A model generated the notes under the pieces. The model saw nothing but the letters and a program-made list of their open reading frames with translations, did no database searches and had not been told where the DNA came from. A DNA stretch of 62,600 nt, counting the filler, from Hausera hauseri (Eukaryota): assembly GCA_046269625.1 (NCBI GenBank). It is 11 parts of 11 records of this genome, joined end to end, with 100 filler letters (N's around TTAATTAATTAA, not from the genome) between each part and the next. Parts side by side here need not be neighbours in the genome. Positions count along the whole stretch, not along the records: positions 41,797 to 46,800 come from JBJURY010363706.1; 10 more parts are not named here. One strand, written 5' to 3'. The translations under genes were made by a program, and so were the position numbers. Below, one piece after another: positions 4,197-62,600 of this stretch; position 1 is the first letter of the stretch, and the number at the start of each line of letters is the position of its first letter.

Positions 4197-4659
4197 CTAA
4201 ATTCAAACAAATTAACATTTAGAATAGATTTAAATTATAAATAAAATAAATTAAAATACATATACGTGTAAAATTAAACATTAAACATAACCCCGATGGT
4301 CTGTAAAATAGTCTTACTCCTATAAACATTTGTTCCCCATACTACTATTACCAATAATAATAATCAAATGGAACAGTACATTGAAAATGAGATTCAGAAA
4401 TTGACCGATGAAATAATGACGGGACATGTGTTTAATGTACAGTTTTTATGTGAACTCAGAAACGAGAATAATGAGCAGGCGAGAATATATTGAATTGATA
4501 GTCAGATCTCTCTTCGTAACATGTATCGAGGATAAAATGAGACGAAAACCGCAACAACAACGACAGATTAATTTCCTCATTAGACTTGTATTTTATGCCT
4601 CGCTTTGTATTGTAATAAAAAAGTTGATTGACCGTATTTAATCACATTTGTACATATTT

Positions 4660-4759
4660 NNNNNNNNNNNNNNNNNNNNNNNNNNNNNNNNNNNNNNNNN
4701 NNNTTAATTAATTAANNNNNNNNNNNNNNNNNNNNNNNNNNNNNNNNNNNNNNNNNNNN
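4660..4759. other. Artificial contig linker
   Basis: 44 N + TTAATTAATTAA (stops in all six frames) + 44 N. Confidence 0.97.
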
Positions 4760-10197: not shown

Positions 10198-10297
10198 NNN
10201 NNNNNNNNNNNNNNNNNNNNNNNNNNNNNNNNNNNNNNNNNTTAATTAATTAANNNNNNNNNNNNNNNNNNNNNNNNNNNNNNNNNNNNNNNNNNNN
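10198..10297. other. Artificial contig linker
   Basis: 44 N + TTAATTAATTAA + 44 N. Confidence 0.97.
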
Positions 10298-23690: not shown

Positions 23691-25906
23691 TTGGATGATT
23701 AAACTAGTAAAACTTATGATATTAATAAGACAACTCGGTGAAATCACAGTATATGACTGCGACAAGTTTAAGGTCGGACAAAGATATTCCTTGATGGATC
23801 TGGAGTATTGTGAGGATGCCAGACCCCCCAAATTAGTAACCATTGAGAAAGTATTTCTTGTATCAGCAACGCGAACTAATCGCAATAGACGGAATAGAGT
23901 GCATGTTACGACGATCACGAAGCATTTTCTACTGTGGAAATATGCACGGGCATTAGTCAATCGTAAAACCAGCAACAACACTAATACCTATGGATTTAGA
24001 CAGAAAACAATGCAAACAAACCAAGGAAACAGGAAGATTGAGATGGGATGGGATGGAGTTAAAAGCCCAACCAGGAAAGATAATTCGAGTGTATAAAATA
24101 GCAATTGGGAAACTAGACATGCACACCGGATACTGTAAAGGTGAGTACGATACAGGAAAAGAGAAGCAGAAATATTAGTAGTTGATTTCTGAGACAGATG
24201 AGGAACCAAAAGGTGATGCTCCATTGTGTTACAAAGACACAGAAAATCAGAAGTGCCATACCCAGGATGGTGCCTGAACTTTCCGGAATTCGATAGTTAT
24301 TTGGACTCCACCACCTATAAATGATTGTAACTTTATCAAAATAAAAGAAAAACTTTAACGAAACTACGGGAAAAAGATATGTAGACACAACCGACAATAA
24401 TGCCAGATCAAGGAAGAACGTCGCTGAACAGTCGACACCCACGACACTGATCTCCGAAGATCACGGATTAAAGTTCATTAAGAATCAAATGCTTTCTCGA
24501 TGCAATGTAGTAATGTACGCCACTAATTACGAAGCATTCTTCGTAGCATAAACTGAAATAACTACTTTTGCTCTTGAAACACAAAATGTAAGAATAGAAG
24601 ATTATTTGAAGAATAGAAATGATTACTTTTATTTCAAAGGACAGATGATCGCAAACGACTGTAAATTGGATGTGGAAGTCATGAGGACCAAACAAGCCTT
24701 AATATACTCAAATCCAGAACTAGCATCACCCGTAATTCCAATGAAAGAAGGCATTTTCGGAAGAGTTACCGGAGAAGTCATGTTGACCTACGAATGCGAA
24801 AAACGAGATGTATCCCTAAACGTGGAAGAAAAACGTTGTATTCAAGAATGGCCAGTCATATATCACAACGTACCTCGATTGGTTATGTCACTTACTAGAG
24901 TCTTGCTAGAAAACGCAACACAACCAACTGTTTTGAAAGAATGCAAAGCAGGTTTTGGCGAACCCATGTTTAAAAGAAGTGAGACAGATTAGATAATTCT
25001 GCCTAATGGAGGAATAATACCCACACTGGGTAAATTAACTGCAACAAATTTGTTAAAAGGCATAACGGATAAGTTCGCTGACACCGCAAGTAAAGGGATT
25101 TACAGATCAAAGGAGATTGAAGCTTTATACAATTTTTAGCCTTCCCTCGACAGCATACACATGAGCTAAATAGAGCCATGTCATCGGTGATGGACGACAC
25201 TCGCTATCAAGCAAAATGGGAATCCCTACTTGGCGTCAATCATTATCAAATAGTCACTACAGAAATACTATATAAAATCTGAGAAAGATTTCTAATTTTC
25301 GGACAAGCTGCATCAGGATTCTTAGCCATCTATTTCTTGGTACAACTCGTAAAGGCTATAATTCAATCTATCATAAATAGCTATGAAATATTTACTCTAA
25401 CCGGATTTTCATGCAAAATTCTGACCGCAATCATAACACCGTTTGGAAAACTTTTGAAGGCCTACGAAGAAAACATGGAAAAGCGACGTGGAGAGACACG
25501 TTGGTTATTATAATCGGCAACGAAAGAGAAAACCTATATTTTTATAGGACAAAGAAATACAAAATTTCGAAAAAACGATTCGGATGATGATGAGCCTAAG
25601 GGAAGAGACGCAGTCTCCAAGATAAGCAATCGTAAGACGATTAGGCCGCCCTTGCCAATGTTGCCTCCTTCGGCACCGTAACAATACGGCGTGTTACGGA
25701 ACATGTACCGAATTAAGGAAAAATCTAATTTATGCCGCCACTCGGTGGATGACCACAGAGTAATATACTTTCCAAGGATTTCACGGAATATAGAAACTAA
25801 ATCATTAATTTGGGATAATCCGCGAACGCAGACCTTCCATAACCAAAACAACCGAGAACCGCTAATCAATACGCCGGACCGAGACAACAAAAACAGTATG
25901 AAGTAG
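23690..25906 (+). pseudogene. Chuvirus-like (class III) envelope glycoprotein with cytoplasmic tail, decayed
   Basis: Hydrophobic leader then VYDC..YSLMDLEYC; C.LRRSRSIFYCG; QCKQTKETG; GYCKGEY; GEVMLTYEC..V..CIQEWPV..TRVL..C..PMF; GIY..FLAFP; TM FLIFGQAASGFLAIYFLVQLVK..GFSCKILTA. Confidence 0.8.
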
Positions 25907-26953: not shown

Positions 26954-29900
26954 TGTGCAGGACACGGTACGAGGAATTTTACAATTTCCATAAACAGCAC
27001 TTGATTTCCTTCGTTAAGTCGAAAAAACAAATATTCAGTAACAGTATGCCAATATCGTCTTTTGTGTCAAAGGAAAACCAAATGTGCAGTTCATATATGT
27101 ATTGCACATGTAAAATACATAACCCCGAGAATTGCCACAATAACATGAGGGGCTATTATGGTCACAAATTTAATAGGATCTTCTATTATATTTTCCCAGG
27201 ATGTGAGACTGTATGTGATGGAGAATACATACAGTTCTATGAAGATCACAAGCATCATTTGAGTAACGTCTCATCAAAGTCCAAGAAGATCATATTTAAT
27301 GAGCATAGGCCAGTTGCACTGTCCGCAGTACAGCCTGCATACGTCGAAATTCAGAATTAAAACGCCAATCAGGCCCATCAGGTCCATCAGATGCCTCAGG
27401 CGTAGGGGCTCCGTCAAAAAGCCATAGGCAGCAGACAGTTGATGCTGCTGCATTAAAGAAAAAAGTCCGCTAATCTGTCATTGATGCAGCTGGGCAAACA
27501 TCCATCAAGGATTTTCTGAAATATGCAAAGTAAGAAAAAGAGCGGATCCTCTAGGACAATATGACTAAGCTCAAGGCCCTTAAAGTTAATATGAAAGTCG
27601 AGGCCACATACGCCAATGTCGATGCTGAAGAATCAAATAGGGCCTTCAAGACCAAAAATAAGCCCATATTGGAGAACACAAATATAGCTGAATGGCTACA
27701 TGAAGAGCATACGAAGCTGATCCGTAAAGCCGATGAGAGCCAGGATAAGAAGAGTGGATGGGCTCTGACAACCATCAAGAGACTGATTATATATGTACAC
27801 AGATAATCCCCCATGCTAGGTAGTTCATTTGTACAGCTTTCGGAATGGAATCGGCAGAAAAGTGCTTGCATTAATGTCCATAATAATGACAACAAGTGCT
27901 TTATGTATGCCATTATATGTAGAGTCGTACGGGATCAAAAACATGCAGCAGATGGAATTTGGCTACATAATGATCTTCAACATAACTACGACTTTCAGTG
28001 TATCACATTCCCTCCATCCCTAGATGAAATCAAGAAGTTCAGCCGCATCAACAACATGTCCATCAATATCTTTGGATTCGATGAGGAGGACAAATTCTAT
28101 CCCTTGCAAATATGTGATGCTGAAATGGAAGATCATAGGGATCTGCTCCTACTATATGATGGTGATAAGAAACATTATGTTTGGATCAGGAATTTTAAGC
28201 GTCTAGTCAGATCCCAAATAAAAAAGCATGAACACGAAATCTAAATATGAAAATATGTTTATTGCATTTCAGCGGTAAGTTAGCTGTGGAGAAGCTGAAT
28301 AAGAATAATATGTACTGTAACAGCCATTATTTCGTAAGGCCTGAATTTCCCAAAGAGGACTATATTGAATTTAAGGAATTCGAGAAGAAGATCAAGGTCC
28401 CAATTATCGTTTATTGCAACTTCGAGGACATTCTCAGGCCAGTTCACGCATGCAGTCCCAGTCCTCAATATAGCAGTACAACGGCATACTAATATCATGG
28501 ATTTTCATCGTATTTTATGTATGCCAAAGGATTGGGCAGTAAACCATATTTATTCAGGGGTCCAGATGCAGCAGCACATTTCATGAAGAGACTTGAAGAC
28601 ATGCCTCATAAGCACGAAAAGATGCTACAACATCATAAGGACGACATGAACATGTCTTGGATACAATAAGAAGAATGGTGCAAGGCAACATCATGCTACT
28701 CTGCGACAAGTCCTTCACCAAGGAAAATTGGAAAGTCAAGGATCACTGCCATTTTACAGGTGCGTATCGGGGTGCAGCATGTAACAACTGCAATCTTCGC
28801 TGCAAAACATGCAATTATGTGCCTGTAGTATTCCATTATCTCAGCGGCTATGACAGCCACTTCATACTCCAAGAATTAGGCAACATTGATGGCAATATAA
28901 ATGTGATCCCCAATAGTGAGGAGAAATATATCAATTTCACTAAGCATGTTGGTAAAATCCAACTTTGCTTCATCGATAGTTTCAGATTCATGTCGTCTTC
29001 ATTGGACAGTTTAGTGAAGAACCTGCCTGCAGAGAAATTCAGGGAAACGAAGAGATTCTTTCCGGATACCTTTGACCTGGTTTAAAGGAAAGCAGTGTTT
29101 CCCTATGACTATATAACATCATGGGAAACACTGAATGAGTCCTCTTACCGCCCAAGGATGGATTTTACAGCCAGTTGTCGGACAGAAATATCAATGATGA
29201 GGACTACCAACATGCTCAGAACGTCTGGCATGCATTCCAATACAGAACGTTAGGAGAATATAGCGATATATGTATATCTTCCAAACCGATCTGATGCTGC
29301 TGACAAATGTATTTGAAAGTTTCAGGGATGTCACAGTAAACAGTCATACTTTGGATCGGGTTCATTTCTTCACGGCTCCACGGATTAACTGGGCAACAAT
29401 GCTGCACTATACCGGTATCAGGCTTCAAGTCATTTAGGATTACAACCTGATCCTTATGATCGAAAGAGGCATTAGAAGGGGAACATGCCAAGCAATTCAC
29501 CGGTATAGCGAGACCAACAACAAGTATATGGCTCAATACGACTCAACAAAGGTGTCATCATATATATCCTACCTGGATGCTAACAGTTTGCATGGATGGG
29601 CAATGAGCGGCCCATTGCCATATGATAATTTCGAGTGGGTTGAGCACCCTGATGACATCCCTATCATGGACATGGACCCAGCTGGAGATACGGGCTACAT
29701 ACTGGAGGTGGATATGGAATATCCGGCTTCCATCCACACAAGGCATCAACAGCTGCCTTTCCTCCCTGAAAACAGGCCACCGCCCAATGGAAAGCAGTGA
29801 AAGCTGCTCTGTAATTTGGGTAATAGGGAGAGGTATGTAGTCCACTACATCAATCTCCAGCAGGCAGTTAAACTTGGACTCCGCATTACTAAGGTCCATA

Positions 29901-30766
29901 GAGCCCTACAGTTCAGCCAGTCCATATGGCTGCAGTCCTACATTGATTTAAATACCAAGCTGCGGACAAATGCCAAGAACGATTTCGAGAAAGATTAATT
30001 TAAGATGTATAATTACAGCGTTTTTGGCAAGACGATGGAGAATATCCGCAATAAGATCAACATCGAGATAGTATGTGACTCGAAGCGGGCAAAGAAGCTT
30101 ATTACCAAGCCTAACTTCCACAGCAGCACCATATATGAGGAGAACTTGGTAGGCATCCATGTGATGAAAACGGCATTTGTATTCAACAAACCGATATATG
30201 TGGGTATGGCAATACTGGACCTATCAAAAACCCTAATGTACCACTTCCATTAAGATTCAATGGTACCAACATTCAAATTCATATAGCAGATGTATATGGA
30301 TACTGATAGTTTTATCTATCATATCCATACTGAGGACATGTATAAAGATTTTGCCTAATTGGCTCAGCACATAGATACCTTAGATTATTCTAAGGATCAT
30401 CCAAATTATTCAACCACCAACAAGAAAGTCCTCGGGAAATTCAAAGACGAGGTGAATGGGAAGATCGTCACCCGTTTCGTGCCATTGCGATCAAAAATGT
30501 ATGCTCTGGACGTATGTGGCCAAATCAAAAAGAGAGCAAAGGGCATTTAAAGAATTACACTGGCCAGCAAGATCCGTTTTGCGGACTAAGTGAGAGTTCT
30601 GCAGGAACAGACTCACATAATATCGAAAATGCGAAGGATCCAATCTAGAGACTATAACATCCACACAGCAGAACTGCACAAGAAGAACCTAGATTGGATG
30701 GACTACAAACTGCAGATCCTGAGCGATGGAGTCCACACACTACCTCATGGACTTGTGGCACTGTAA
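26954..30766 (+). pseudogene. Maverick/Polinton pPolB, near full length, decayed
   Basis: N-terminal Cys/His repeat; KVKDHCHFTGAYRGAACNNCN; HYLSGYDSH; YLDANSLHGWAM; KMYNYSVFGKTMEN; YMDTDS; KKVLGKFKDE; terminal TLPHG. Confidence 0.95.
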
Positions 30767-30999
30767 ATATGTACATATTGTTAGTCTTTGTTATTTTTGC
30801 TTGTAATAAATCTTGTATAAAAATATCGTGTTGTCTTATTGATCAAGTAACGTGGATATAGGATAAGGCCAAGTAAATCTAAGTAACTACTATATAGGTT
30901 AAGACCAAGTAAAGATCAATAAAATCAATAAAATTGAAATTTGAATAAAAAGTCAATACAGTGCGACATTTACTTGCATTAATCTTTCATTATTTCAAA

Positions 31000-31275
31000 A
31001 TGCTAAAAACTTGCCCGATTTGTTGGAAGCAAATGCCGGGTAAAACAATGCGAATGGCGACATGTGATGCACATACCTTCTGTATAAGATGTATGCAGAA
31101 ATGGTTAAGCAGCAAAATGTCATGCCAGCTATGCAGAACAAAGTGCGAGTATGTGGTAGTCCAGGATGCTAAAGACCACTGCCTGTATGTAAAATGGGTA
31201 GGGCTCCTGATAAAACCCATACATGAATTCTTACCTGACAGTGACAGTGACAGTGATAGTACGATTATTATGTGA
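31000..31275 (+). CDS. Small C3HC4 RING-finger protein (putative E3 ubiquitin ligase) with acidic DS tail
   Basis: CPIC...CDAHTFCIRC..W...CQLCR; intact 91-aa ORF from the ATG at 31000. Confidence 0.8.
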   Translation: MLKTCPICWKQMPGKTMRMATCDAHTFCIRCMQKWLSSKMSCQLCRTKCEYVVVQDAKDHCLYVKWVGLLIKPIHEFLPDSDSDSDSTIIM

Positions 31276-31347
31276 ATGTTATTCAATACATGTTTTTTCA
31301 TTATATGCCTTATGCATTATAAAAACCAACTAGTTTTCATAACACAT

Positions 31348-31670
31348 TTATTTCATAACAATATAATTTTGACATAACGCTAAACACTTTTCATAAGCGC
31401 AGTGTGAACCATGTTCACGATAAATACATGTAATGTTCTTTTGTATAGCCTACAATTTACCACATTCATATGTACGTATTCGCAATTCTGGAATTATGAT
31501 ATTAAATATTATCTTCTTTCGTCCATCAGCATGATTTTTGACATTGAACATGGATTAATTTATATCACATATATTCCCAATATCTCGCATAAGGCAGTCT
31601 CTGCAAAACTAGGTACTATATTCCTCCCAAGTCAGTTTCCGATGATGTTTTGTCAAATAAGCATTTGTTG
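31348..31670 (-). pseudogene. C-terminal part of a Maverick DEDD-like nuclease/Zn protein
   Basis: TNAYLTKHHRKLTW...CIYREHGSHCAYEKC; homologous to 37651-38168. Confidence 0.65.
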
Positions 31671-37511: not shown

Positions 37512-37601
37512 GTCACATACAATGATATTATGCATCAGAATCCATTGACATTTCTATGTGGGAATTATTGTGTGGACTGGCTTAGACGTCAATGTACATA
37601 A
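37512..37601 (+). CDS. C-terminus of a Maverick adenain-like cysteine protease (partial)
   Basis: VTYNDIMHQNPLTFLCGNYCVDWL matches YN....Q......CG.YC around the catalytic Cys. Confidence 0.65.
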   Translation, partial: VTYNDIMHQNPLTFLCGNYCVDWLRRQCT

Positions 37602-37650
37602 AATTGTTATAAACGTTGTTATTGTTGTGTTAATAAATGTTATTATTGAA

Positions 37651-38168
37651 ATAATATCTGTCTTCTTTATTGACTTGGAGGGATTTGTGGATAATAATAG
37701 CGGATACATCATAAAGAAGCTATGTATAATGTCAGTGGATAATATGTTTCATCCACCACACTATGTATTTGTGTAAGTGAATTTTAGTACATGCAATATA
37801 TGTGCTATTTTTATGCCTTCAATACATTGTTGTACAAACAAGGCTCAAGCAACAAATGCTTATTTGATACACCATCATCACAAACTGACTTTGGAGGAAT
37901 ATAATACCCTGTTTTGTAAAGATTGCCTTGTGCGAGATATTGGAAATATATGTTATATAAATGAATCCATATTCTATGTCAGAGATCACGCTGATGGACG
38001 GAAGAAGAAGTTATTTAATAGCACATTTTCAGAATTGCGAATATGTGCATATGAATGTAACAAAGTGGTAACCATTCCAAAGAAATATGTATTTATCGTG
38101 AACGTGGTTCACACTGTGCTTATAAAAAGTTTTTAGCGTTATGTCAAAGTTATACTGTGACTAAATAA
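37651..38168 (+). pseudogene. Maverick DEDD-like nuclease/Zn protein
   Basis: FIDLEGF..YIIKKLCI; TNAYLIHHHHKL; CIYRERGSHCAYKK; stop and frameshift. Confidence 0.7.
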
Positions 38169-38319
38169 ATGTGTTATAAAATTAGTTGTTGTTATTCTAT
38201 ATAGTAGTTACTTAGTTTTTCTTGGCCTTATCCTATATCCTACATTACTTTATCAAGAAGGCAACACGATATTTCTATACAACATTTATTAAACAGTGAA
38301 GAACGCTGAGTAACAATAT

Positions 38320-41300
38320 TTACAATGCCACATGTCCGTGAAGCAGTGTGTGTATCCCATCTCCGAGGATCTGCCTCTTGTTGTCCATCCAATCTAGGCC
38401 TTTCTTCTATAAGGCTACAGTTTAAATGTTATGCTCCCTAGATTGGATCCGTCTAATCTCTGATATGATGTGAGTTTACTCATGCAGAACTGTCATATGA
38501 TCTTCAAAACTGATCTCCTTGGTCAATGTAGCCCTTTGAACCTTTTTTGCCCACTTCTTTACTTGGCCACATCCGTCTAGAGCATAAATTTTAGATTTGA
38601 GAGCTACAAATCTCGATATTATTGCCCCATTCACCTTGTCTTTGAGTTTCCCAAGGAACTTTTTATTGGCAATTAAATAGTTGGGATGATCCTTCAGATA
38701 GTCCAAGGTATTCATGTGTTGGGCCAATTCGGCAAAGTACTTATAAATATCCTCAGTATGGATCTGATAGATGAAACTATCAGTATCAATATACATAAGC
38801 TGCATGGACTTGAACTTGGGGCCCATGATGTCGTAGTGGAAATGATACATCAGGGTCTTTCACAGGTAGAGGATTGCCATACCCACATATATGGGCTTGT
38901 TAAATACCAAGGATGTTTTCAGCATATGGATGCTGACCAAGTTCTCAGTATATGTAATGCTGCTGTGGAAGTTAGGCTTGGCAATAAGCTTTTTTGCTCG
39001 CTTCCAGTCACATACCAGTTCGATGTTGATCCTGTTGCGGATATTCTCCATGGTCTGGCCAAAGACCGAGTTGTTGTAAAGCTTGAACTGGTTCTTCTCC
39101 AAATCGTTCTTGGCATTAGTCCGCAGCTTGGTATTGAGATATATGTTGGGCTGCAGCCACATGGACTGGCTGAACTGCAGTGCTCTATGGATATTAGTAA
39201 TACGAAGTCCATGTCTAACAGCCTGGTGGATATTGATGCAGTGAACTATATACCTCTCCCTATTATCCAGATCACAGAGCAGCTTTCTATGCTTTCCGTG
39301 GTGCGCAGGCCTGCTCTCAGAGAGGAAAGGCAGATGTTGATGCCTTGCGTGGATGGAAGCAGGATATTCCATATCCACCTTCAGTATGTATATCGTATCT
39401 CCAGCGGGATCCAGGTCTAATATAGGGATGTTTTCAGGGTTCTCGACACACTTGAAATTATCATACGGCAATGGGGTGCTTATTGCATATCCATATAAGT
39501 TGTTGGCATCCAGGTGTGATATATATATGAGGATTCCTTGGATGAGTCATACTGCGCCATATACTTGTTCTTGGCCTCCCTATACCGGTGAAAGGCGTGG
39601 CATATTCCGTCTCTAATGCTGCTCTCGATCATAAGGATCATATCATAATCCTTAATGATCTGCAGCCTAATACCAGTATATCTCGGTATTGCTGCCGAAC
39701 TCACCCCTGCAGCCGTAAAGAAATGAGCAGGATCCAAAGCATGACTCTTCATTGTAACATCCCTGTAACTCTCAAAGACATCTGTCAGAAGCAACACGTC
39801 CGTCTTGAGGTATATGTCGCTGTATTCCCCTAATGTTCGACATTGGAATGCATGTCAGACATTCTGGGCATGGTGGTAGTCAGCATCACTGATATCGCAA
39901 TCAGAGAGAATACTGTAAAAGTCCTTGTTGTCCAGCAATGAGGTCTCATCCAGTGTTTCCCATGAGGTTATGTTGTCATAAGGAAACACGCCTTTACTCT
40001 TGATGAGGTCAAATGCAGTGGGGAAGAACCTCTTCGTCTCTTTGAGTTCTTCTGCAGGGAGGTTCTTCACTAAACTATCCAGTGACGAGCTCATGAAGCT
40101 GAAACTGTCTATGAAGCGAAGTCTGATGCAGCCCACAAGCTTGGTGAAAGTGATATATTTTTCCTCACTGTTTGGGATCACATCTATATTACCATCAATG
40201 TTACCTAATTCTCGGACAATGAAATGGGAATCATAGCCACTAAGATTATGGAACACTACAGGCACATATGTACATGTTTTGCAGCGAATATTGCAGTTGT
40301 TGCATGCTGCACCCCGATATGCACCTGTAAAATGGCAATGATCCTTGACTTTATGATTAGCCTTGGTGAAGGACTTGTCGCACAAGTAACATGTTGTTGC
40401 CCTGCGCCATTCTTCAGCTTGTTTCCACGACATGCTCATATTATCCTTATGCTGCTGAAGCATGTTTCCAAGCTTGTGAGCCATATCATCAAGTTGTTTC
40501 ATGAAATGTGCTGCTGCGACTGGACCCCTGAATGGAAATGGTTCACTGTCCAGTCATCTGGCATACATGCAATACGATGAGAGTTTATGATATTGGTATG
40601 CTGTTGTGCTGCTATGTTGAGGACTGGGAATGTAGCTGTGAATTTGCCGGAGAATAGCTTCAAAGTTGAATTAGATAACTATTGGTACCCTTATTTTCTT
40701 CTCGAACTTCTTGAATTCAATATAGTCCTCCTTAGGAAATTCTGGCCTGATACAATAATTGTTATTGCAGTACATTTTGTGCTCTTCAAGCGCGTCCACA
40801 ACTGAATCACCACTAAAATAGAAAAAGCATCGTTTACACATTTCTATTCTTTCCTTATGTTTCGTAATTTGGGATCTGACTAGACGCTCAAAGTTTTTAA
40901 TCCAAACAAAATCTTTCTTTTCTCCATTGTCTAGTAGGAGCAGATCCCTATGACATTCCAATTCAGTATCATATATCTGCAGGGGATAAAATTTGTCCTC
41001 CTTATCTAATCCAATGATGTTGATGGATATGTTGTTGATTCGGCTGAACTTCTTAATTTCGTCTAAGGATGGAGGGAGATTAATACATTGGAAGTCATAA
41101 TTGTGCTGCAAATTATTATATAGCCAAACTCTATCTGCTGCATGTTTTTGATTCGGTAAGAGTTTACATAAAATGGCATACATAAAACACATGTTGTCAT
41201 TATTATGGACATTGACACATGCTTTTTTATTAGCGATCTATTTCGGAAGCTGAATATAAGAACTGTCCCTCATTGGAAAGTACTTGTGAACATAAACAAA

Positions 41301-41696
41301 CAATCTCTTGATGGTTTTTAGAGTCCATCCGCTTTTCTTATCCTGACTCTCACCGGCTTCACGGATCAGCTTTGCATGCTCTTCATGCAGTCATTCTACT
41401 ATATTAGTGGATTTAAAAATGGGTCTTTTGTTGGTCTTGAAGGCCCCTTTGGACCATTCACCATCAATATTGACGTATGTGGCATACAGTTTCATATTGA
41501 CTTTAAGGGCTTTGAGTTCAGTCATATTGTCCTGGACAATTCCCTTTGTTTCTTCCTTTGTGTACTCCAGGAACTCCTTGATGGTTGTTTGACCAGTTGC
41601 ATCAATGACATATTTGCAACATTTCCTCTTTAATGCTGCAGCATCAACTGGCCGCTGTCTTTGACTCTTTGATGGAGCCGGTACGCCTGATGCGCC
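38320..41696 (-). pseudogene. Maverick/Polinton pPolB, decayed; close relative of 26954-30766
   Basis: KVKDHCHFTGAYRGAACNNCN; HNLSGYDSH; KGVFPYD; KLYNNSVFGQTMEN; YIDTDS; terminal TLLHGH. Confidence 0.95.
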
Positions 41697-41796
41697 NNNN
41701 NNNNNNNNNNNNNNNNNNNNNNNNNNNNNNNNNNNNNNNNTTAATTAATTAANNNNNNNNNNNNNNNNNNNNNNNNNNNNNNNNNNNNNNNNNNNN
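41697..41796. other. Artificial contig linker
   Basis: 44 N + TTAATTAATTAA + 44 N. Confidence 0.97.
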
Positions 41797-42005
41797 TCTC
41801 TATTTATATCAAACGTTTGCTTTCATTGCAAACAATAGATATTTACTTTATGAGTATTGTCTCATCGCAATGATACCAATTACCTCCATAATACTGAAGT
41901 CATTCGTAGTAAATGTATACAATTTCCATTATAGTCCATGATTATTATTATAACCTATGTGTATTAATAGTTTTGAACAGAGAAATAACAGCGAAATACA
42001 ATTAT

Positions 42006-42487
42006 TTATTTGCATAAAATATAGTCAATACAAAGCCGTAGACAATTTTTGTAAGCACAATGCGGTCCACGATCACAATACGGACATCGGATATTGTCAG
42101 ATACCATTGCCAGCAAGCAGTTCAAATACATCCTCATTCGCAAGTCGGGAAATTGTAAATGGAGTTGTGTAAATTTTTGTCCCTCAATTTGATCTTTAAT
42201 TTAAAATATTGTATTTTCAATGTTAAAACGATCACAAATATCTCGCATGATACATGATACGCAAAACGTTGAACTGCCTTGGTTCCAATAAAGTCCATGA
42301 CAACATCGTATAAGATATCTTTTGGTAATTTCCGCCTTTCTGTCAACTGATTCCACATAATGCGAGGCTTGAATACGTACACAAGCGGTTCGGAAATGTT
42401 ACTGACGTCCCTAATACATAATTCCTTTATTATGTACCGGGCATTATCATCTTGGAATGCTTCAATATCTATAAATCCTGTCGTCAT
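42006..42487 (-). pseudogene. Maverick DEDD-like nuclease/Zn protein
   Basis: GFIDIEAFQ..YIIKELCI..YVFKP; frameshifted C-terminus CPYCDRGPHCAYKNC. Confidence 0.7.
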
Positions 42488-42568
42488 TACTTATCATGTA
42501 CAATATCACTTTTTTGTTTATTACACAAACAAAACTACTAACTATTATTATTATTATTATCACAGTCA

Positions 42569-43042
42569 TTAAACATAGGTGGTTTTGTCCATATCACCAA
42601 AGCCAAATTCTTTGCGTTCATTTCGTGTTGTGAATTCATTGACACAAAACAGTCCCCATTGTTCCGGTGACATTACACTGAATTCCGCTTCTTCACAGCG
42701 AAGAAAAATGATTTGTGCCATTGCACTGCCTTTCACAAAAGCAAACGGTTCTCCGGATTGGTTTTCTAGCAACACCTTAATTTCACCACGAAAGTCTGAA
42801 TCAATGACGTTGCCTACAACCGTCAGTCCGAGCTTTGCCAATCCGCTTTTCGATAAAAGTTGGCCGTAGTAACCGAATGGAATCGCCAATCGAATCCAAG
42901 TCGTTATGCATTTGATTGTGCTGTCCGAAATTGTCGTATTGACATTGGAAAACACATCGTAGCCTGCACTGTTTGCTGTAACACGTCTCGGTACAAAGGC
43001 ATTTTCGTCTGTTAAGATAATCTTTACATCATTTATTATCAT
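42569..43042 (-). CDS. dut: Trimeric dUTPase
   Basis: All five motifs: SAGYD, SKSGL, VIDSDFRGEI, AQII, R..GFG; uninterrupted ORF. Confidence 0.92.
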   Translation of the reverse strand: MIINDVKIILTDENAFVPRRVTANSAGYDVFSNVNTTISDSTIKCITTWIRLAIPFGYYGQLLSKSGLAKLGLTVVGNVIDSDFRGEIKVLLENQSGEPFAFVKGSAMAQIIFLRCEEAEFSVMSPEQWGLFCVNEFTTRNERKEFGFGDMDKTTYV

Positions 43043-43409
43043 TATTCTTATGCCAATTTTTAAAATTACACGTATATTTATAGTCGTTATTTGGGTTGAT
43101 GAAAGAAGAACAAGAACGGTAAAACAACAACAAAATTTATTGATAATTAAAATGTGCTTCAGCTACAAGCCAAATCGGGCTTCTGATACCGGCTTTTTCC
43201 TTGTATCTTTGCTATTCAATGTTAAGTCGACACTTTAAACCACCACCATCATCATCGGGTTTATGAGACATTTTGCGACCGATAAAATCAAACAAATTCG
43301 TTTTCTGCGCCGGTATATCGATAGATTGCTGTTGCACAGTCGTTTTGTTCAACTTTAAATCCATGTTTAATTGATTTAGAGCATCAGAAAGTTTATCCAT
43401 ATTTTCACC

Positions 43410-44318
43410 CTAAAGCCGTTTTACACGATAGCTGTACTTCGGTGCACATAAAGACACTGGATCATTCAATGAAATCAGTATGGGCGTTTGCAGAAAATGC
43501 ATTTCGTACCTGCGAAAAATTCGTTTCCATAAATATATCTGTGTTTGGCGCGACGACGACGGTTTTGATTTTCGCTTACGTATTCCAATCATTGCATTTC
43601 GCCTTTTTAACGTTGGTTTTGCAGCTGCTGCTTTCTGTGCAAGTTCCTGTTTCGTTTTAAGACAATTGACTTGCAGACAATCACACGGTTTTTCTAATTG
43701 TTGGACAGGTGGTTCCTGCAGTTTGTCATTGGAATTATCATTTTTGTAGCCAAACAACCACGACCAGTCTAAACTTTCATCACTCGCACAAGCATCATGA
43801 TCGTTGAGTAGAATCGTTTTATCATCGTCTTCTTCCATGGCAGTAATGTCTGATTGAGCATGGGAATGGTTTATGTAGTTTGTTGTGCAGAATGCATTAC
43901 TTTGGTTCATTAAAACTGTCTGAATACCGAGTACAACAATTTTTCCAGTGCTAAACACATTGACACAAATCGGGCGAAACGATGTTAGCCTCAGTGCAGG
44001 TAACAGTTCGGATTCATGTGTACATTCAGCAGCGGCCATTGCAAATTTATACAGATTGATTGTTTGGTGGTAGTCTAACTGAGTCATTACCGTTATTGAT
44101 TGGATTTGGTCAATGACAATCCCTAATTGTAGTAGTTTATCAGCTGTGATTGGTTTGCGAGAACCTATAATACGACATTTTTCCGATTGAAATACGATGA
44201 ATGTAAAATCCGGTTGACACTTAAGTACATACGGCCTCGGCTTCTATTGATTAAAAGGTAGTATGTTAATGTCACACCACTCGGCAACATGTCCGCGATA
44301 ATTGATATTAGCTATCAT
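43410..44318 (-). pseudogene. TATA-binding-protein-like gene with a charged C-terminal extension; one in-frame TAG at 44244-44246
   Basis: Two TBP repeats: IANIN...IVFQSEKCRIIGSRK and IQSITV..L...INL...HESELLPAL....P..VNVFSTGKIVVLG. Confidence 0.75.
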
Positions 44319-44344
44319 TATGGAAACAGTGTTTATACTGTAGC

Positions 44345-44352
44345 TATTTATA
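44345..44352 (-). promoter_or_regulatory. TATA box of the TBP-like gene
   Basis: Minus-strand TATAAATA about 27 nt upstream of the ATG at 44318. Confidence 0.45.
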
Positions 44353-44420
44353 TGCGCGTATGTAAAACGATTATGAACAAATCATGTGGTGAGGAAATGT
44401 TGTATTATTATTATTATTAA

Positions 44421-45053
44421 ATGAAGCTGCAGAATGATGCCATTTTCCAGATCGTAGGCCCCAGTGGAAGTGGCAAAACACACTTTGAGTGTAAACTATT
44501 GCAGAAAAACCGTGACATGTTCCATTCACCGCGGTATAATCATATATACTGGCATCAGGGTGTTGGTGATGATGGTGAGTCCGGTTTGACACAACGGGAA
44601 TTTTGTAAACTGAAATAGACAACGGTAATTGATGGGTTTGATGAAAACTGGTCAGAGAGATTACGCAACGGTGATGTTATTGTCATTGACGATTTATTTC
44701 AAGAGGCAACGAAACAATCGTACTTCAAAAACCTGTTCACGAAGATGGCACGGCACCGCGGTGTGACAGTTATTTTTATTACGCAAAACATGTTCCATCA
44801 GAGCGGACAACATCGAACAAGAAATCTAAACGTACACGACTTAGTGTTGTTCAAAAATCCCCGTGATCAGACTAGCATTGATCATGTTGCACGACAAGCA
44901 TTTCCTCACAATCGAGCCTACTTGATAGATGCATATCATGATGCTACGACCGACCCACATGGATACTTGTTCATCGACTTTACACAAGAGTGTCCCGACG
45001 ACATGCGTGTACGAACAGACATTTTCAATCCGAAAGGTGGTGTATGTGTCTAA
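44421..45053 (+). pseudogene. Maverick packaging ATPase (A32/FtsK-HerA), one premature stop
   Basis: Walker A GPSGSGKT, Walker B VIVIDD, ARHRG..FITQN, LFKNPRD, YLFID; the two track ORFs share one frame. Confidence 0.92.
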
Positions 45054-45075
45054 AGCAAATTCGATAAAAAACAAA

Positions 45076-45253
45076 ATGAAGAATTTCCGAAAAACAGTTG
45101 TTAAACGTAAACAATCTACTACCAAGCGGGTGTCCGGTGGCAAGAAACGTGTATCAAAACGAACCGCTACATTCAAGCGATTAATCAATTCTGTGCTTTG
45201 AACAACAAAAGCAGCAGCTAGACGCAAATTACCGTCACAGTGGCAACGGTTAT
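45076..45253 (+). pseudogene. Small Lys/Arg-rich putative core/DNA-condensing protein
   Basis: MKNFRKTVVKRKQSTTKRVSGGKKRVSKR directly after the ATPase. Confidence 0.4.
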
Positions 45254-45280
45254 AAACTACTACGTCTCATCAGCATCAAT

Positions 45281-45614
45281 ATGTCCAAAAAATGAGATTC
45301 AAATATAGTCAGATGTACTTTATGGCTTTGTTCAAGTACTTACGAGACATAAGCGAATCATGCTGCGATCATTCCCGCAATGTGTAGTAGTCGATTTGAT
45401 GGAAATTTTGGACAATATTGTTGTGAGTCACGTTGACATTGGTAGTGGAAAGCGGAATTTACTAAAGTATCGAAAACCACTCATTGGCCTTGACAACACT
45501 CGTAGTAAACCACAGAAACGCGAGATCATGCACCATTAAGACGGAGGATTGCTTGGTGCAATTCTACCACTTGTCACATCATTACTGGGTGGACTCATTC
45601 GTGGAACAGTTTAG
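45281..45614 (+). pseudogene. Conserved small Maverick virion protein (pX-like, GG followed by an amphipathic helix)
   Basis: LMEILDNIV...LLKYRKPL...KR...*DGGLLGAILPLVTSLLGGL. Confidence 0.65.
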
Positions 45615-45758
45615 TATAAACAATGCTGGTAAGTATATGATGATTCGGCGACATGCGTGGATGGTTTTCGTCTTTCTGTCCCAGTTTACCGAATCTTTCA
45701 TTTACGTTTCTTTCAAATTGTTGCAATGCAACCAAAGCCGACACCATCGACGGCAACG

Positions 45759-46512
45759 ATGGGCGATGTGTGGTTCGACTCGCGTCATCCCGTCATCTAT
45801 ACTAGCGTCAATAAACTGGCAGACTGTCAAACAGACTCGGCGACAAACCAAACGTTGGCTGGAGAAACAGTTAGCATACAGCCTAAACAAACCGATAAAA
45901 AGGCGGTTTCGAACTCGTGCATACCGTGCTACCGGTGTAATTAAGGTATGGCAAATGGATTTGATGGAAATGATTCCGTACGCCAGCATCAACGATGGGT
46001 ATCGGTAATTGCACATATGTATTTATGTGTTTAGTCGTTTTGCACGTACTGCCGGATATTATTCATACACACAATCATTAGACATATCGTGGCATCATGG
46101 ATTACGGACGGTTGATGTAATCGATGATTTGGACATATGGCTTTATCAAAATCTACGACAACCAACTAAATGTCGTCCCAAGTATAAAATCGGTGATTAT
46201 GTACGTTTTTCAAAAATAAGTGCGACGCCATTCATTAAGAATTTCAATCAAAACTGGAGCTACGAGATTTTCCGCATTTCGGCAATCAACACAAAACAAA
46301 CACCTGTCATGTACATTTTAGAAGATGAAAATGGTGAGGAAATATGCAGTAAATTCTACGAACAGGAACTGCAGGTACTGCCAGAGAAACCCGATGTATA
46401 TCGTATTCAGGCAATTCTAAGTTCATGTGGCAAAGGTTGGAATAAACAATATCTCGTCAGGTGGCAAGGATACACTGTACCGAGTTGGATTCTTGCATCA
46501 CAGATTCAATGA
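45759..46512 (+). pseudogene. Maverick retroviral-like integrase with C-terminal chromodomain; catalytic core partly deleted
   Basis: WL..Q.AYSL.KP..RRF; WQMDL; CIYVFSRFA; KYKIGDYVR..F.K..NWS.EIF; FYEQELQ; YLVRWQGY..SWI. Confidence 0.9.
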
Positions 46513-46800
46513 GTAGGAGCAGCCTTTAATCCAATGCGGAATCCGATATTATGGTAAAGTGGATTAAGTCAAAATCAGTTTTCCGCTCATATACTATACC
46601 ACACGAATTATTAATGGAAATGAAACTGGAATTGTGTGAGTACGTCAAGAAAACGGCTCACAATATTGTGCACAGTATTTGCGTGTATATGCTTGATGAA
46701 GTTTGGGAATCCATTAAATTTCTGTTTGGGTCAACGACACGTGACGTTACATTTTCGACGTCGTCGATAATAGACAAACTGCATAATCATCATCATCATC

Positions 46801-46900
46801 NNNNNNNNNNNNNNNNNNNNNNNNNNNNNNNNNNNNNNNNNNNNTTAATTAATTAANNNNNNNNNNNNNNNNNNNNNNNNNNNNNNNNNNNNNNNNNNNN
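46801..46900. other. Artificial contig linker
   Basis: 44 N + TTAATTAATTAA + 44 N. Confidence 0.97.
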
Positions 46901-57834: not shown

Positions 57835-58894
57835 ATTTTATGTTTATGCAATTTCGTCTTATGTGTCCTTGCTGACCACACCCATAGCATATAATGGGTT
57901 TCCTTTCCGGATAATTCTTATTAATGTGTCCTACTTTCCAGCAACCAAAACATCTTGGTGCTTATTGGTAGTTGCATGTCCTGCTTGTATGTCCGTCTTT
58001 CTGACACGATGAGCACTTCATAATACTCTGCCTGTGTATTGTGCAGTTTGAAATGCCTTCTTTTATGTCTTAGTTTGTCAAATTTGTGCACTACCACATC
58101 CCTATAACTCCGTCGACTATCTTTAGTATATTCTCTGACTGTATTTATTTCCTCCGTCTTTGTTGCCACTTCTGGACTTTCTGTATTTTCTGTTTGATTT
58201 GTTCGACACTTTTTTCGTCACTGTGATAGATTTCTTTTCTCATATCTGCATTGTTACAACAGTGGATCATTCGTTCCTCTGTTAGAGCTTCCGCTATTAT
58301 TTTGTGGCTAAGGATGCCCTTCAGCAAATGTTCGATTTTGTTGAAATAGGCGTCCGATTCTGCCCCATCCATTCTGTAGTCCAGTGCTTCCCGCAGATCT
58401 CCGCACAGCGTTGCGGGATTTGCAAAGGCTTTTCTCAACCGATTTTGGTAACCTTTCACCTTCTGTCTCACCAAATGGTATTTTTTCTGTGCTTTGTCTG
58501 CCAACAGGCACAAGACCGCGGTTTTCCGATTCGACTCCGACATTTTTATGAAGCCGAAGTATTTCTCGAATTTTTCAATAAAGGTTTCCACGTTGTCACC
58601 TTTTTGGAATTCTTTTGGCATTAATTTCTTATCGAAGAAGTCTCTTGAAGTGTGGTTTGCCATGTTATTAGATCGCGTATCTACCATTCCGACCTCAACG
58701 TCATTCGATGATTGTAGGATTGAATTATGCATTAGAAATTTATTATAAAAGTTGGTACAACAATTATTTCATTCACTCATTAAATGAGTCTTATTTTCAT
58801 CCTTTTTTGAATTTCTCGACTTTATATTGGCTATTTATTGGATTGACTTTGAATTGAATTTAAACGTTAATATTCGTTTAAATTCTTCCTCACA
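57835..58894 (-). mobile_element. 5' LTR (~58713-58894) and gag of an LTR retrotransposon
   Basis: TGTGAGG...TCCTACA; gag MVDTRS..F.KGDNVETFIEKFEKYF; zinc knuckle CYGCGQQGHIRRNC. Confidence 0.8.
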
Positions 58895-59295
58895 AAGCAA
58901 AATGTGCATTTAAAGCCCAGTGAAGCGGAGATCAAAAAATCTAAGATCGGGACTGGATAGGAAGTCATGTATGTTGAATTGGAATATGATGTTAGATATT
59001 CGAATTCTTGCTTCCAAGTCGAATATTTAGCTATTCGAACTCGAATAATCGTTCAAGCGTGCATTTTTCGAAGAATCTGATGACACCATTCGAATCCGCA
59101 TGATCGAAAACCTTAAATTTGGCGCCGTCTTGTATTTAATTTAATTGATGCATTAAAAGAAAAAGCGAATTAAAACCGATCAATAAGCCAGGCAGTACAT
59201 GGTTATATGGCAATATATTTCATTATTTCCAAAATCACATCAACGAATGGTCAGTTTTTTAATTGTGCGCTTTGAAATAATTGGTTGATTTTTAG

Positions 59296-62200
59296 ATGTG
59301 CAATCTTTACAGCCAATGTTTGGCTCAAATCCACGAGCCTGATAATTGCCACAGTATTATGAAGAAGTACTTTGGCCATCTATACAACAGGGTTCAGTAT
59401 TATATATGCCCTACATGTGAGGTAGTGTGCCAAACCAAATATGAAGACTTCTACAATGTCCATAAACAACACTTGGTTTCCTTCACCAAGTCAAAAAAAC
59501 AAATATTCAGTGCAAATATGCCAATATGGACTTTCATGCCAAAGGAAAATCAAAGATGCAGTTCATATGTGTATTGCACGTGTGTAATACACAACCCTCA
59601 GAATTGTCACAATGCCATTAGGAGCTACTATGGACACATATTCAATAGGACCATCTATTATATCTGCCCAGGATATAAGGCTGTATGTGATAGAGAATAC
59701 ATACAGTTTTATGATGATCACAAATATCATTTGACTGACTTCACATAAAAGTTAAAGAATGTCATATTTAATGAGCAGCATCCTGGTTTGGCAGCACAGC
59801 CTGCTTTGGTAACACAGCCTGCTTTGGCAGCACAGTTTGCTTTAGCAGCACAGCCAGTTGTTCAGCATGCTTTGGCAGCACAGCCAGTTGTACAGCCTGC
59901 TTTGGCTGCAAGGCCCAATGCAGGACTAAAACGCATATCAGAAGTAGCAGCAGATGCTCCACCAAAAAGCCAAAGACAGCGGCCAGTTGATACGGCTGCA
60001 CTGAAGAGAAAAGTGCGGCGATAATTCATAGCAGCAGTGGGGCAGACATCGCTACATAAATTCCTGGAATATTGAAAGGAGGAGGCAGCAAGAATTCTCC
60101 AGGACAACGTGTTGGAGTTGAAGGCCCTTAAGGTGAACTTCAAATTAAGGGCCACCTTCACCAATGTCAGAAGAGAGCCGTCTAGTAGAGCCTTTAAGAC
60201 ATGGAACAGGCCACTATTGAAATCCTTTATCATTAAGGATTTTATTACAGAGGACTATGCAAGGCTCATCCACGAAGCCGAAAAAAACCAGGATAAGAAG
60301 AGCGGTTGGACGTTAGCAACAATAAAGGGGTTACTTGTGCATGTGCACAAGTATTTTCCCATGGGAGGCAGCTCCTACATACCGCTTCCTAAATGGATAG
60401 TTAAGAAAAAGGCATGCATCAATGTCTATAATGAGTACAACATGTGCTTCATATATTCTATTTTGTCAAAAATAGTCCAGGATCAACACTATGCTTCCCG
60501 AGTTTGGATATATGACAATGTGCAGCACACATACGACGTCAGCTGTATTTCATTTCCGCCGAGCTTAGATGAAGTCGTGAAATTTAAAAGCATGAACAAC
60601 ATTTCCATCAACATCGTCGGATTGGAGGAGGACAAATTTTATCCCTTACATGCGTACAAGGAGGAATTGAAGGATCATAGGGATGTGCTCCTGCTATATG
60701 ATGGAGAAACAAGGCATTTCATCTGGATCAAGAATTTTGAGCGCCTCGTAGGATCCCAAATATCTAAGCATAAGTCAAGGCGGGAAATATGCAAAAGATG
60801 CTTTACCCATTTTAATGGAGACAGACGCAGAAAAGCTGGAGGAGCACAAGACCTACTGTAATACAAACAATTGCATCCGAGCAGAATTCCCCAAGGAGGA
60901 TTACCTGGAATTCAAAGAGTTCGAGAAGATGCAGAAGGTGCCGATTGTTATATATTGTGACTGAGTCCATCCTCAGTCCAGTTCACAGCTGCAGCCCCAA
61001 TCCACAGCAAAGCAGTACTACAGCATACCAGTACCATGAGTTATCATCATACTGCATGTATGCCAAAGGACTGGACAAAGAACCCTACTTATACAAGGGT
61101 GTAAATGCAGCAGCACATTTTATGGAATAGTATGCGCACAAACTTGAAGACATGTTGCAGCAGCATAAGGGATATATGGTAATGTCGCAGAAAGAAAAAT
61201 GTTAATGGCGCAGAGCATCAATATGCTACTTATGCAGAAAGTCATTTACATGCGACTATCACAAAGTTAGGAATCATTATCATTTTACAGGCATATACCA
61301 AGGCGCATCGTGCAACAATTGCAACATACGCTGCAAAACATGTACATATGTTCCCGTGGTATTCCACAATCTTAGTGGATACGATTTCCACTTCATTGTT
61401 CAAGAATCGGGTAATACTGAGGGGAACACTGATGTGATTCCCAATAGTGAGGAGAAGTATATTGCCTTCACAATCATGTGGGCCGCATCAAACTTTGCTT
61501 CGTTGATATCTTCAGATTCATGAGCTCTTCACTGGACAGATTCATGAAGAACCTTCTAGCCGATGAGCTCAAGGAGACGAAGTGGTTCTTCCAGGACACA
61601 TTTGACCTAGTGAAGCGGAAAGGAGTGTTCCCCTATGACTATATAACGTCATGGGAAGCACTGGATGAAGATGCATTACCGGCCAATGAGGACTTCTACA
61701 GTCAGTTGTCATACAGTCATATTAGAGATGCTGACCATGAGCACTCCCAAAGAGTATGACAGGCCTTCTAGTGCAGGACAATAGGAGAATACAGCAATAT
61801 CTATTTCTTTACAGATGTGCTGTTGCTTACTTATGTCTTCGAAAGCTTCCGGGATGTGACACTTAAGAGCCACAAGTTAGATCAAGCCCATTTCTTTACA
61901 GCTCCAGGAATGAGTTGGGCAGCTATGCTGCGCTATACCGGCATAAAGCTCCAGGTCTTGAATGATTACAATACGGTCCTTATGATTGAGAGGGGCATCA
62001 GGGGCGGAATCTGTCAGGACATTCACAGGTACAGTGAGACCAACAACAAATACATGGCAGATTATGATCCATCCAAGGAATCCTCATATATATTATACCT
62101 GGATACCGACAATCTGCATGGATGGGCAATGAGCAACCCTTTGCCCTATGATAACTTTCAATATGTGGAACCGCCGCAAGTCCTGGATATTGAATATACG

Positions 62201-62430
62201 GATCCCAATGGAAATACGGGCTACATACTGGAGGTGGATGTGGAATACCCATATAGCATCCACAAAAGACACGAACAGCTGCCTTTTCGCCCGGAGAGCA
62301 AGCGGCCGCCATATGGTAATCATAAGAAGCTGCTCTGTCACCTCGAAAACAGGCAGGTATGTAGCCCATTACATAAATCTCCAACAAGCCATAAAAATGG
62401 ACTCCGAGTCATCAGAATTCATTGGGCCTG
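59296..62430 (+). pseudogene. Maverick/Polinton pPolB with a complete N-terminal tandem Cys/His repeat; decayed, truncated after motif A
   Basis: Two 86-aa Cys/His repeats; GSSYIPLPKWI; HNLSGYD; KGVFPYDY; YLDTDNLHGWAM. Confidence 0.95.
59776..59910 (+). repeat. Coding minisatellite (~18-bp GCACAGCCTGCTTTGGCA, encoding AQPALA) in the PolB N-terminal linker
   Basis: LAAQPALVTQPALAAQFALAAQPVVQHALAAQPVVQPALAA. Confidence 0.8.
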
Positions 62431-62600
62431 TGGTACGTCGTATAGTCCATTAATTTATTTAATGTAGAAGCTGCAGTAAAGAATTCCGGTTGCAATAATA
62501 ATAATGATTAGGCATTAACCATATAAGTAGATCGCGTCTCTACCATCCCGACTTCTACATCACTTGATGATTGAAAAGTTGAATTATCCATAAGATATTT

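Follow-up and report, generated by a model that had tools for sequence, protein, structure and literature searches.

Trimmed TATA-Binding Proteins of Maverick Elements and a Candidate Box Upstream of Their Packaging and Structural Genes

A contig of the Hausera hauseri genome carries a fragment of a Maverick/Polinton element in which a TATA-binding protein (TBP) homolog lies among virus-like genes, and the question it raises is whether such an element supplies its own basal transcription factor or a TBP mimic, as a preliminary description of the locus had proposed. The answer bears on how integrated Mavericks switch on capsid genes and whether a helper is needed. The value of the locus lies in the protein family to which it leads, the local copy being a fossil whose ends had been wrongly drawn.

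A Single Contig Holds the Element Fragment

The window, by which we mean the whole 62,600-nucleotide stretch of DNA analyzed, consists of unrelated contigs of ~5 kb each, strung together with artificial 100-nt spacers made of 44 N, TTAATTAATTAA, and 44 N; these lie at 4660-4759, 10198-10297, and eight more sites, and adjacency across any of them is an artifact. The element fragment is held by one contig of 5,004 nt (41797..46800), bounded by the assembly spacers 41697-41796 and 46801-46900. Pieces of pPolB in the window sit on four other contigs, outside the real neighborhood, which is 41797-46800 only. On the minus strand of this contig are genes for an exonuclease-like protein, a dUTPase, an SSB, and the TBP, and on the plus strand genes for a packaging ATPase, a PZ-type protein, and an integrase.

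The frameshifted exonuclease-like Maverick gene (42018..42487, minus strand) was recognized by tblastn in two frames to its homologs in L019 and L011 (L numbers denote the metagenome loci described below), and we take it to be of the DEDD type from a D-x-E motif. The dUTPase (42569..43042, minus strand) matches Pfam PF00692 with an E-value of 8e-23. The packaging ATPase (44421..45053, plus strand) has a stop at codon 66, matches Pox_A32 with an E-value of 2.2e-5, and is 68% identical to the L006 ATPase. It is followed on the plus strand by a broken Maverick gene (45240..45599; 37.5% to its L005 homolog, E 1.6e-20), presumably PZ-type from its position, and by a broken integrase with a C-terminal chromodomain (45832..46512; 53-62% to the L011 integrase, weak Chromo match). 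The integrase and packaging ATPase that we used to recognize a Maverick are both present and both broken, as are most Maverick genes on the contig, and Pfam rve and Pox_A32 are found on relatives of the two proteins. Capsid and protease genes would fall past the end of the contig.

Other contigs of the window hold further remnants. A frameshifted pPolB at 670-3528 (minus strand) is closest to that of the TBP-bearing element L006, and a small broken ORF at 4322-4500 (plus strand), with ATAAAC 46 nt upstream, resembles by eye the gene that separates TBP from ATPase in L010-L012; together they probably represent a further fragment from a related element. Three further decayed pPolB contigs (26954-31670, 37512-41696, and 57835-62600) are 71-83% alike in matched stretches, two of them also with an exonuclease-like gene and one with a RING gene. 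A short major-capsid fragment lies at a contig end (26742-26852; 56% to L006 over 39 aa). Endogenous RNA-virus-like ORFs occupy 21531-25000, including a piece of a Monjiviricetes-type fusion glycoprotein (24552-24992; Pfam E 1.4e-9), and other contigs encode CDT1, tyrosine-phosphatase/FN3, and Tc5 domains, suggestive of an animal as the host.

Two Decayed Genes in the Reported TBP Reading Frame

The preliminary description had drawn one intronless TBP gene at 43410-44318, extended through a TAG to an ATG at 44318. The ATG and a single TAG, at codon 25, are indeed in the sequence, both of the quoted TBP repeat motifs are there, and the gene is without introns. The identification as a TBP homolog also holds: the copy scores above the cut-off of Pfam TBP (PF00352; E 1.3e-7 to 1.7e-8, 31.8-34.6 bits, cut-off 22.9), all seven PDB sequence matches up to an E-value of 1 are TBPs, and all 35 PDB matches of a three-sequence profile are TBP-containing chains. 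The gene boundaries, by contrast, do not stand. Residues 161-302 match stand-alone proteins of 185-190 aa, which begin at Met161 of the 302-codon ORF and extend beyond its stop at 43410. When the whole 302-aa sequence was used as query, only this SSB half found matches, which identifies the ORF as a chimera, and we rejected the single 302-codon ORF in favor of a TBP gene and a separate SSB gene fused by decay. The TBP part alone as query retrieved intact relatives of 150-160 aa with the same start position.

So delimited, the TBP copy is a decayed mini-TBP gene at about 43872..44318 on the minus strand, with a stop at codon 25, a 16-codon in-frame gap near 43914, and its own stop lost. It is 63% identical to P0007, an intact relative, over residues 1-159 (71-74% in two other comparisons); relative to P0007, 16 codons are missing from its last helix, and its frame runs into the SSB gene with no stop between. 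The equivalent of F190 is also missing, and the copy stands on a long end branch (0.37 vs. 0.03 for P0007). In contigs from two runs, one for each of two organisms, every one of the 30 bins of this contig is covered (39,708 and 1,949 records). Inside the premature stop codon (44244..44246, minus strand), contigs from the two runs differ from the window, variants accounting for a summed depth of 187,745/189,352 in X1 and 1,330/1,330 in X2, summed contig depth not being copy number. Because almost all of these contigs differ at this codon, there are many variants of the element, and the stop is private to the window copy. The window TBP is a decayed pseudogene. Single low-depth contigs join ~42560 to ~44400, omitting the dUTPase-SSB-TBP block (window 42541-44420); they may derive from deletion and could offer a natural comparison in which TBP is absent.

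As had been described, the TBP gene is divergent from the packaging ATPase, the two lying head-to-head with the ATPase start at 44421. From the dUTPase, to which it was reported to lie close, it is separated by the SSB gene. That SSB gene (43137..43838, minus strand) is broken by stops at 43410-43412 and 43212-43214, and its 5′ part lies within the ORF first reported. The window SSB aligns by hhalign with family A4, its close relatives, at 98.97%. The predicted fold of a family member (pLDDT 93.2) matches the phage Enc34/T7 gp2.5 SSBs 4klk/5odk with a Z score of 8.5, rmsd of 2.5-2.8, and 101-103 aligned residues; a Z score near 8 is moderately above background, and the four top structural matches are all of this one type. 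The family is predicted on the basis of this model to have the T7 gp2.5/Enc34 SSB fold. ESM Atlas gave no usable match with the SSB.

A Family of Small TBPs in Maverick Elements

A phmmer search of 1.84 billion representatives gave 170 matches, counted as representatives at 50% identity and including a few canonical TBPs or artifacts; 56 of the 170 had an E-value of 1e-10 or better; with a 41-sequence profile, 325 of 1,378 candidates were accepted as family members. These are mostly 130-200 aa long. P0007 scores 59 bits against the Pfam TBP cut-off of 22.9, and ESM Atlas with P0011 returned TBP clusters only. The AF2 model of P0007 is a two-repeat TBP saddle (pLDDT 93.9, pTM 0.84), which disposes of the concern that the protein might have no TBP fold. 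Foldseek matches listed for this model, to rank 44, were all TBP-containing chains, the best being 1mp9 (TM 0.69, E 1.2e-8), with 19-28% identity among the matches listed. The model has no helix in residues 1-84, so the first-lobe helices H1 and H2 are gone. The H2 linker, 32-33 residues in canonical TBP, is at most 24 residues in 194 of 260 Maverick members and longer in the other 66, and H1 is trimmed too. In P0084, the second TBP repeat is apparently duplicated at the C terminus.

Genomic context was taken from 74 metagenome loci, four of which (L066-L069, not Maverick-like) were left out of synteny and motif counts. TBP proved to lie beside Maverick genes well beyond the window: a core gene is present in 35/70 loci, in 17 of the 18 loci of at least 4 kb, and in all 13 of at least 5 kb, and some recurrent Maverick gene is found in 61/70. 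Near-complete elements are represented by L006, L011, L035, L040, and L052. An exonuclease-like gene occurs in 29/70 TBP loci, SSB is often adjacent to TBP (24/70), and pPolB is present in seven of the 70, with DNA_pol_B_2 at an E-value of 7e-24 on L035. Peptidase_C5 was detected on L019 (E 1e-7), and the major capsid of L035 is a weak Capsid_N match (E 0.007); the genes that we take to be minor capsid and core in these relatives are so labeled by position. TBP and ATPase share a strand in 22 of 26 loci, making the head-to-head layout of the window a minority arrangement. No terminal inverted repeats were found in five long loci, all of them partial contigs. For 15 of 18 pairs, dN/dS is 0.08-0.33, the other three being saturated, which indicates that the family is under purifying selection.

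Several loci have additional features. Two SSB-type genes flank the TBP of L028 (273-1013 and 1660-2256), two minor-capsid-type genes lie at L011:5616-7684, and L038 and L040 carry tandem exonuclease-like genes. Cargo genes of TBP-bearing elements include an E2 ubiquitin-conjugating enzyme (L011:225-719), a dynamin-type GTPase (L053:6273-7037), an LRR protein (L015:1265-1804), and KilA-N (L052:6804-7889). Scans of IMG/VR found no relatives of the TBP family, Maverick ATPase, or major capsid and none of the mirusvirus-like TBP, and INPHARED gave no match to the Maverick ATPase.

Phylogenetic Position

In a quick IQ-TREE search without bootstrap, sampled without animal host TBP, a branch with SH-aLRT 99 divided 89 family rows from 10 host-like, archaeal, or NCLDV-type TBPs and four mirusvirus-like TBPs. 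The phylogenetic check called for in the preliminary description thus separates the family from the other TBPs sampled. A nested group of 39 trimmed-helix rows includes the window copy (SH-aLRT 99). The mirusvirus-like label of L066-L069 is our own reading, made with a weak Herpes_UL92 match nearby; their full-length TBP, like the Maverick family, has Asn where yeast has L205, which may hint at the donor. The eukaryote-type TBP of L083, on a contig in a gammaproteobacterial genome bin, is probably contamination.

DNA Face and Partner Surfaces

To compare residues, 260 full-length members were mapped to yeast numbering via the host-like TBP of L078, leaving out P0009 (a repeat artifact), six canonical TBPs, proteins shorter than 120 or longer than 300 aa, and 32 of 292 rows, which were partial; DNA-contact positions follow the list in Table 1 of PMC12529657. 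Three of the intercalating phenylalanines that the preliminary description had singled out for inspection are kept (F116 and F190 each in 258/260, F207 in 260/260) and the fourth, F99, is lost, a Phe near its position being found in 5/260. With F99 lost, DNA bending may differ. The stirrup glutamates E186 (238/260) and E188 (258/260) are kept, and these residues (C.L3.2 and C.L3.4) contact TFIIB (PMC7221094).

The symmetric N69/N159 and T124/T215 minor-groove contacts of canonical TBP are not found in the family: N69 is kept in 246/260, N159 is S or T in 258/260, T124 is M in 259/260, and T215 is T in 33/260. Near-fixed polar changes are V122R (255/260), L205N (260/260), and V71N (221/260), conservation at L205 and F207 being inflated by TBP-motif pattern matches among the members; I194R and V203C each occur in 215/260, and V161 is changed to T or S. 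In yeast TBPm3, an altered-specificity mutant that acquires binding to TGTA, the three mutated sites are I194, V203, and L205 (PMC1636458). The trimmed H2 is the helix that carries the basic patch for TFIIA, TAF1, Brf1, and Mot1 (PMC7221094). This pattern would fit a protein selected to bind DNA of a different sequence with the TFIIB contact kept.

Boxes Upstream of Maverick Genes

Two classes of motif lie upstream of the genes of TBP-bearing Mavericks. Before the packaging and structural genes, comprising the ATPase, PZ, integrase, minor and major capsid, core, protease, exonuclease-like, and PLA2 genes, a (T/C)ATAAAC box recurs: ATAAAC is present in 82 of 110 nonredundant 100-nt upstream regions against 8.5 expected from dinucleotide shuffles, in a count made on related elements, with the window contig left out, of a motif spotted by eye in the same data. 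Most boxes lie 30-57 nt before the ATG; antisense ATAAAC is absent from the 110 upstream regions, and its density inside coding regions is 0.05 per 100 nt. The box was found with all three TBP groups, and non-Maverick controls had ATAAAC in 2/34, 1/35, 0/8, and 1/23. The TBP genes themselves have ATAAAC in 4 of 48 upstream regions (3.6 expected) and TATAWAW in 23 of the 48 (7.1 expected), and for SSB genes the counts are 5/19 and 14/19, respectively. Since the counts cover TBP-bearing Mavericks, all Mavericks may share the box, with host TBP as its reader.

TATAAAC is one base off a canonical TATA box, and ATAAAC resembles a Forkhead site. The base before ATAAAC is T or C in 74/82 (C in 19/82) and A in 5/82. 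Some of the boxes could be taken for a poly(A) or termination signal of the preceding gene: 16/82 overlap the upstream TAA, and 18 of 101 TAA stops with no labeled gene after them also read ATAAAC. With T or C before the box in 74/82, the motif is, however, not AATAAA, 36/82 boxes lie within the coding region of the upstream gene, and the box also precedes the divergently placed ATPase of L058. From the preceding base and the position inside coding regions we argue that it is not a poly(A) signal.

Over the whole window, most of which is not Maverick, ATAAAC is not enriched (61 seen, 64 expected). On the element contig, a canonical TATA box stands 34 nt before the TBP start (44346..44352, minus strand), with ATAAAC also at 44331-44336. 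ATAAAC boxes lie 33 nt before a PZ start codon (45252..45257, plus strand), before the integrase region (45616..45621, plus strand), 34 nt before the exonuclease-like gene (42516..42521, minus strand), and 36 nt before the SSB start (43869..43874, minus strand); no exact ATAAAC precedes the ATPase, the dUTPase, or two small ORFs of this contig.

Proposed Function and Alternatives

The proposal that the element supplies its own basal factor or a TBP mimic is supported at the level of the family by fold, gene context, and selection; at the window locus, where the copy is a decayed pseudogene, the element supplies nothing. We modestly favor the reading that the TBP of intact elements, ~150 residues long, is the element's own late-promoter factor, "late" being our own label. 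Ordinary TATA boxes would let host machinery transcribe the genes for TBP and SSB. The viral TBP, its DNA face re-lined, would then bind (T/C)ATAAAC before the ATPase, integrase, capsid, and core genes; its conserved E-P-E stirrup would recruit host TFIIB and Pol II, and, having lost the helices of its first lobe, it would escape host regulators of the TFIIA/TAF1/Mot1 type. No Pfam match to an element-encoded TFIIB was found in 50 and 70 ORFs, in overlapping sets from partial loci and with a model that may miss a diverged TFIIB. Between a working factor and a mimic, the sequence evidence leans to an altered-specificity late-promoter factor. Extended to a large animal Maverick clade, the scheme of a minimal altered-specificity TBP, host TFIIB, and a private YATAAAC box constituting a late-gene program has, in our estimate, about an even chance of being right.

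A possible but rather unlikely alternative is that the protein is a general booster, a regulation-proof substitute for host TBP on any TATA-like box, ATAAAC being an ordinary variant TATA read by host or viral TBP or by a host Forkhead-type factor. This reading accommodates the retained stirrup glutamates and three phenylalanines, the single base that separates the box from TATAAAA, the crystallization of wild-type TBP on a C(-25) TATA variant (1qn3), and the report that viral TBPs generally are without the N-lobe regulator patch (PMC7221094). It leaves unexplained why polar residues are almost invariably substituted on the DNA face, why the C of the box is strict, and why packaging genes are preceded by ATAAAC but TBP genes by TATAWAW, and the 19 boxes that start with C break the TATA pattern.

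Improbable in our view is a decoy or repressor that sequesters host TFIIB through its stirrup, or blocks promoters, against host or antiviral transcription, with no part in viral initiation. Few motifs are kept as well as the E-P-E-L-F-P stirrup, and F99 and two helices are lost, which speaks for such a protein; a pure decoy, however, should have no need of residues fixed over the whole concave face that meets DNA, and the upstream box is left unexplained. Quite improbable, too, is a DNA-binding role in replication or packaging, such as bending terminal or origin DNA, with ATAAAC as an unrelated poly(A) or termination signal. The frequent proximity of TBP to SSB and to the exonuclease-like gene and the boxes that overlap an upstream stop codon would suit this role, but the TFIIB-contact glutamates are kept, and the poly(A) reading meets the objections given above. 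Finally, the suggestion that the gene is a recent host TBP retrocopy taken up by one element and now decaying, to which the broken window copy and its long end branch might point, is very improbable and already refuted for the family, which has 19-28% identity to solved cellular TBPs among the matches listed, many 50%-identity clusters, purifying selection, a recurrent place beside Maverick core genes, and variant contigs in two organisms.

If the favored reading of a late-promoter factor is true, the elements would have a natural orthogonal TBP-promoter pair, and virion-gene expression without a helper virus would be explained. The family would also show the natural limits of TBP trimming and respecification, all three TBPm3 sites being changed in most members. 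One small protein and a 7-nt box make a directly testable pair.

Comparison with Known Systems

Elements of this kind with a TBP have some precedent in print. The abbreviation "TBP" appears on a genome map of a MELD/adintovirus-like element in the legend of Fig. 5 of Starrett et al. 2021 (PMC8502044), where a TBP-like gene lies in a midsize element with an adintovirus-like PolB; the legend gives a label, without family, structure, or promoter analysis, for what may be a member of the Maverick family, and the annotated genomes in the supplement may name the Maverick TBP gene. This legend was the one relevant result of searches, mostly of non-subscription literature, for Maverick, Polinton, or polintovirus with TBP, TATA, or promoter, and a term search found no mention of TBP in PMC11161782, PMC11131425, PMC12220804, or 10.64898/2026.10.13.758929. 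A precedent for a transcription-factor gene in Polinton-type elements is provided by the VLTF3-like factors of polintoviruses (PMC11131425), which have an unrelated poxvirus/NCLDV-type fold.

With cellular and archaeal TBPs (PF00352; 1mp9, 1ytb, and 1c9b), the Maverick protein shares the two-repeat saddle, the equivalents of F116, F190, F207, and N69, and the glutamates E186 and E188, and it differs in its low identity (19-28% among the matches listed), the loss of F99, and the fixed polar changes of the DNA face. It fails several defining features of a canonical TBP yet belongs to the Pfam family. The top BFVD matches are nucleocytovirus TBPs, led by that of Heterosigma akashiwo virus (E 2.3e-7), but identity to nucleocytovirus and mirusvirus TBPs is 7-19% and they fall outside the Maverick family branch. 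Nucleocytoviruses nearly always encode TFIIB and keep the stirrup Glu poorly, at ~40% (PMC7221094), whereas in the Maverick family no TFIIB was detected and E186 and E188 are kept in 238 and 258 of 260 members.

The closest functional parallel may be the herpesvirus TBP mimics KSHV ORF24, EBV BcRF1, and HCMV UL87, viral proteins of TBP fold whose DNA face is polar and which are paired with a noncanonical TATA-like box before late genes (PMC12529657); the Maverick elements also have a candidate box. BcRF1 is a weak structural match to the Maverick TBP (E 5e-3), and the KSHV mimic is likewise polar at V122, T124, V161, and L205 (PMC12529657, Table 1). ORF24 is a 752-aa multidomain protein that works in a viral complex, binds Pol II, is without the TFIIB glutamates, and reads TATT (PMC12529657), whereas the Maverick protein has ~150 aa, keeps the glutamates, and has YATAAAC as its candidate box. 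By this analogy we consider it somewhat probable that the Maverick TBP works like the herpesvirus late-gene mimics without being one of them. If so, it would be a further invention of the herpesvirus-type strategy of a viral TBP plus a private TATA box, in its smallest form so far.
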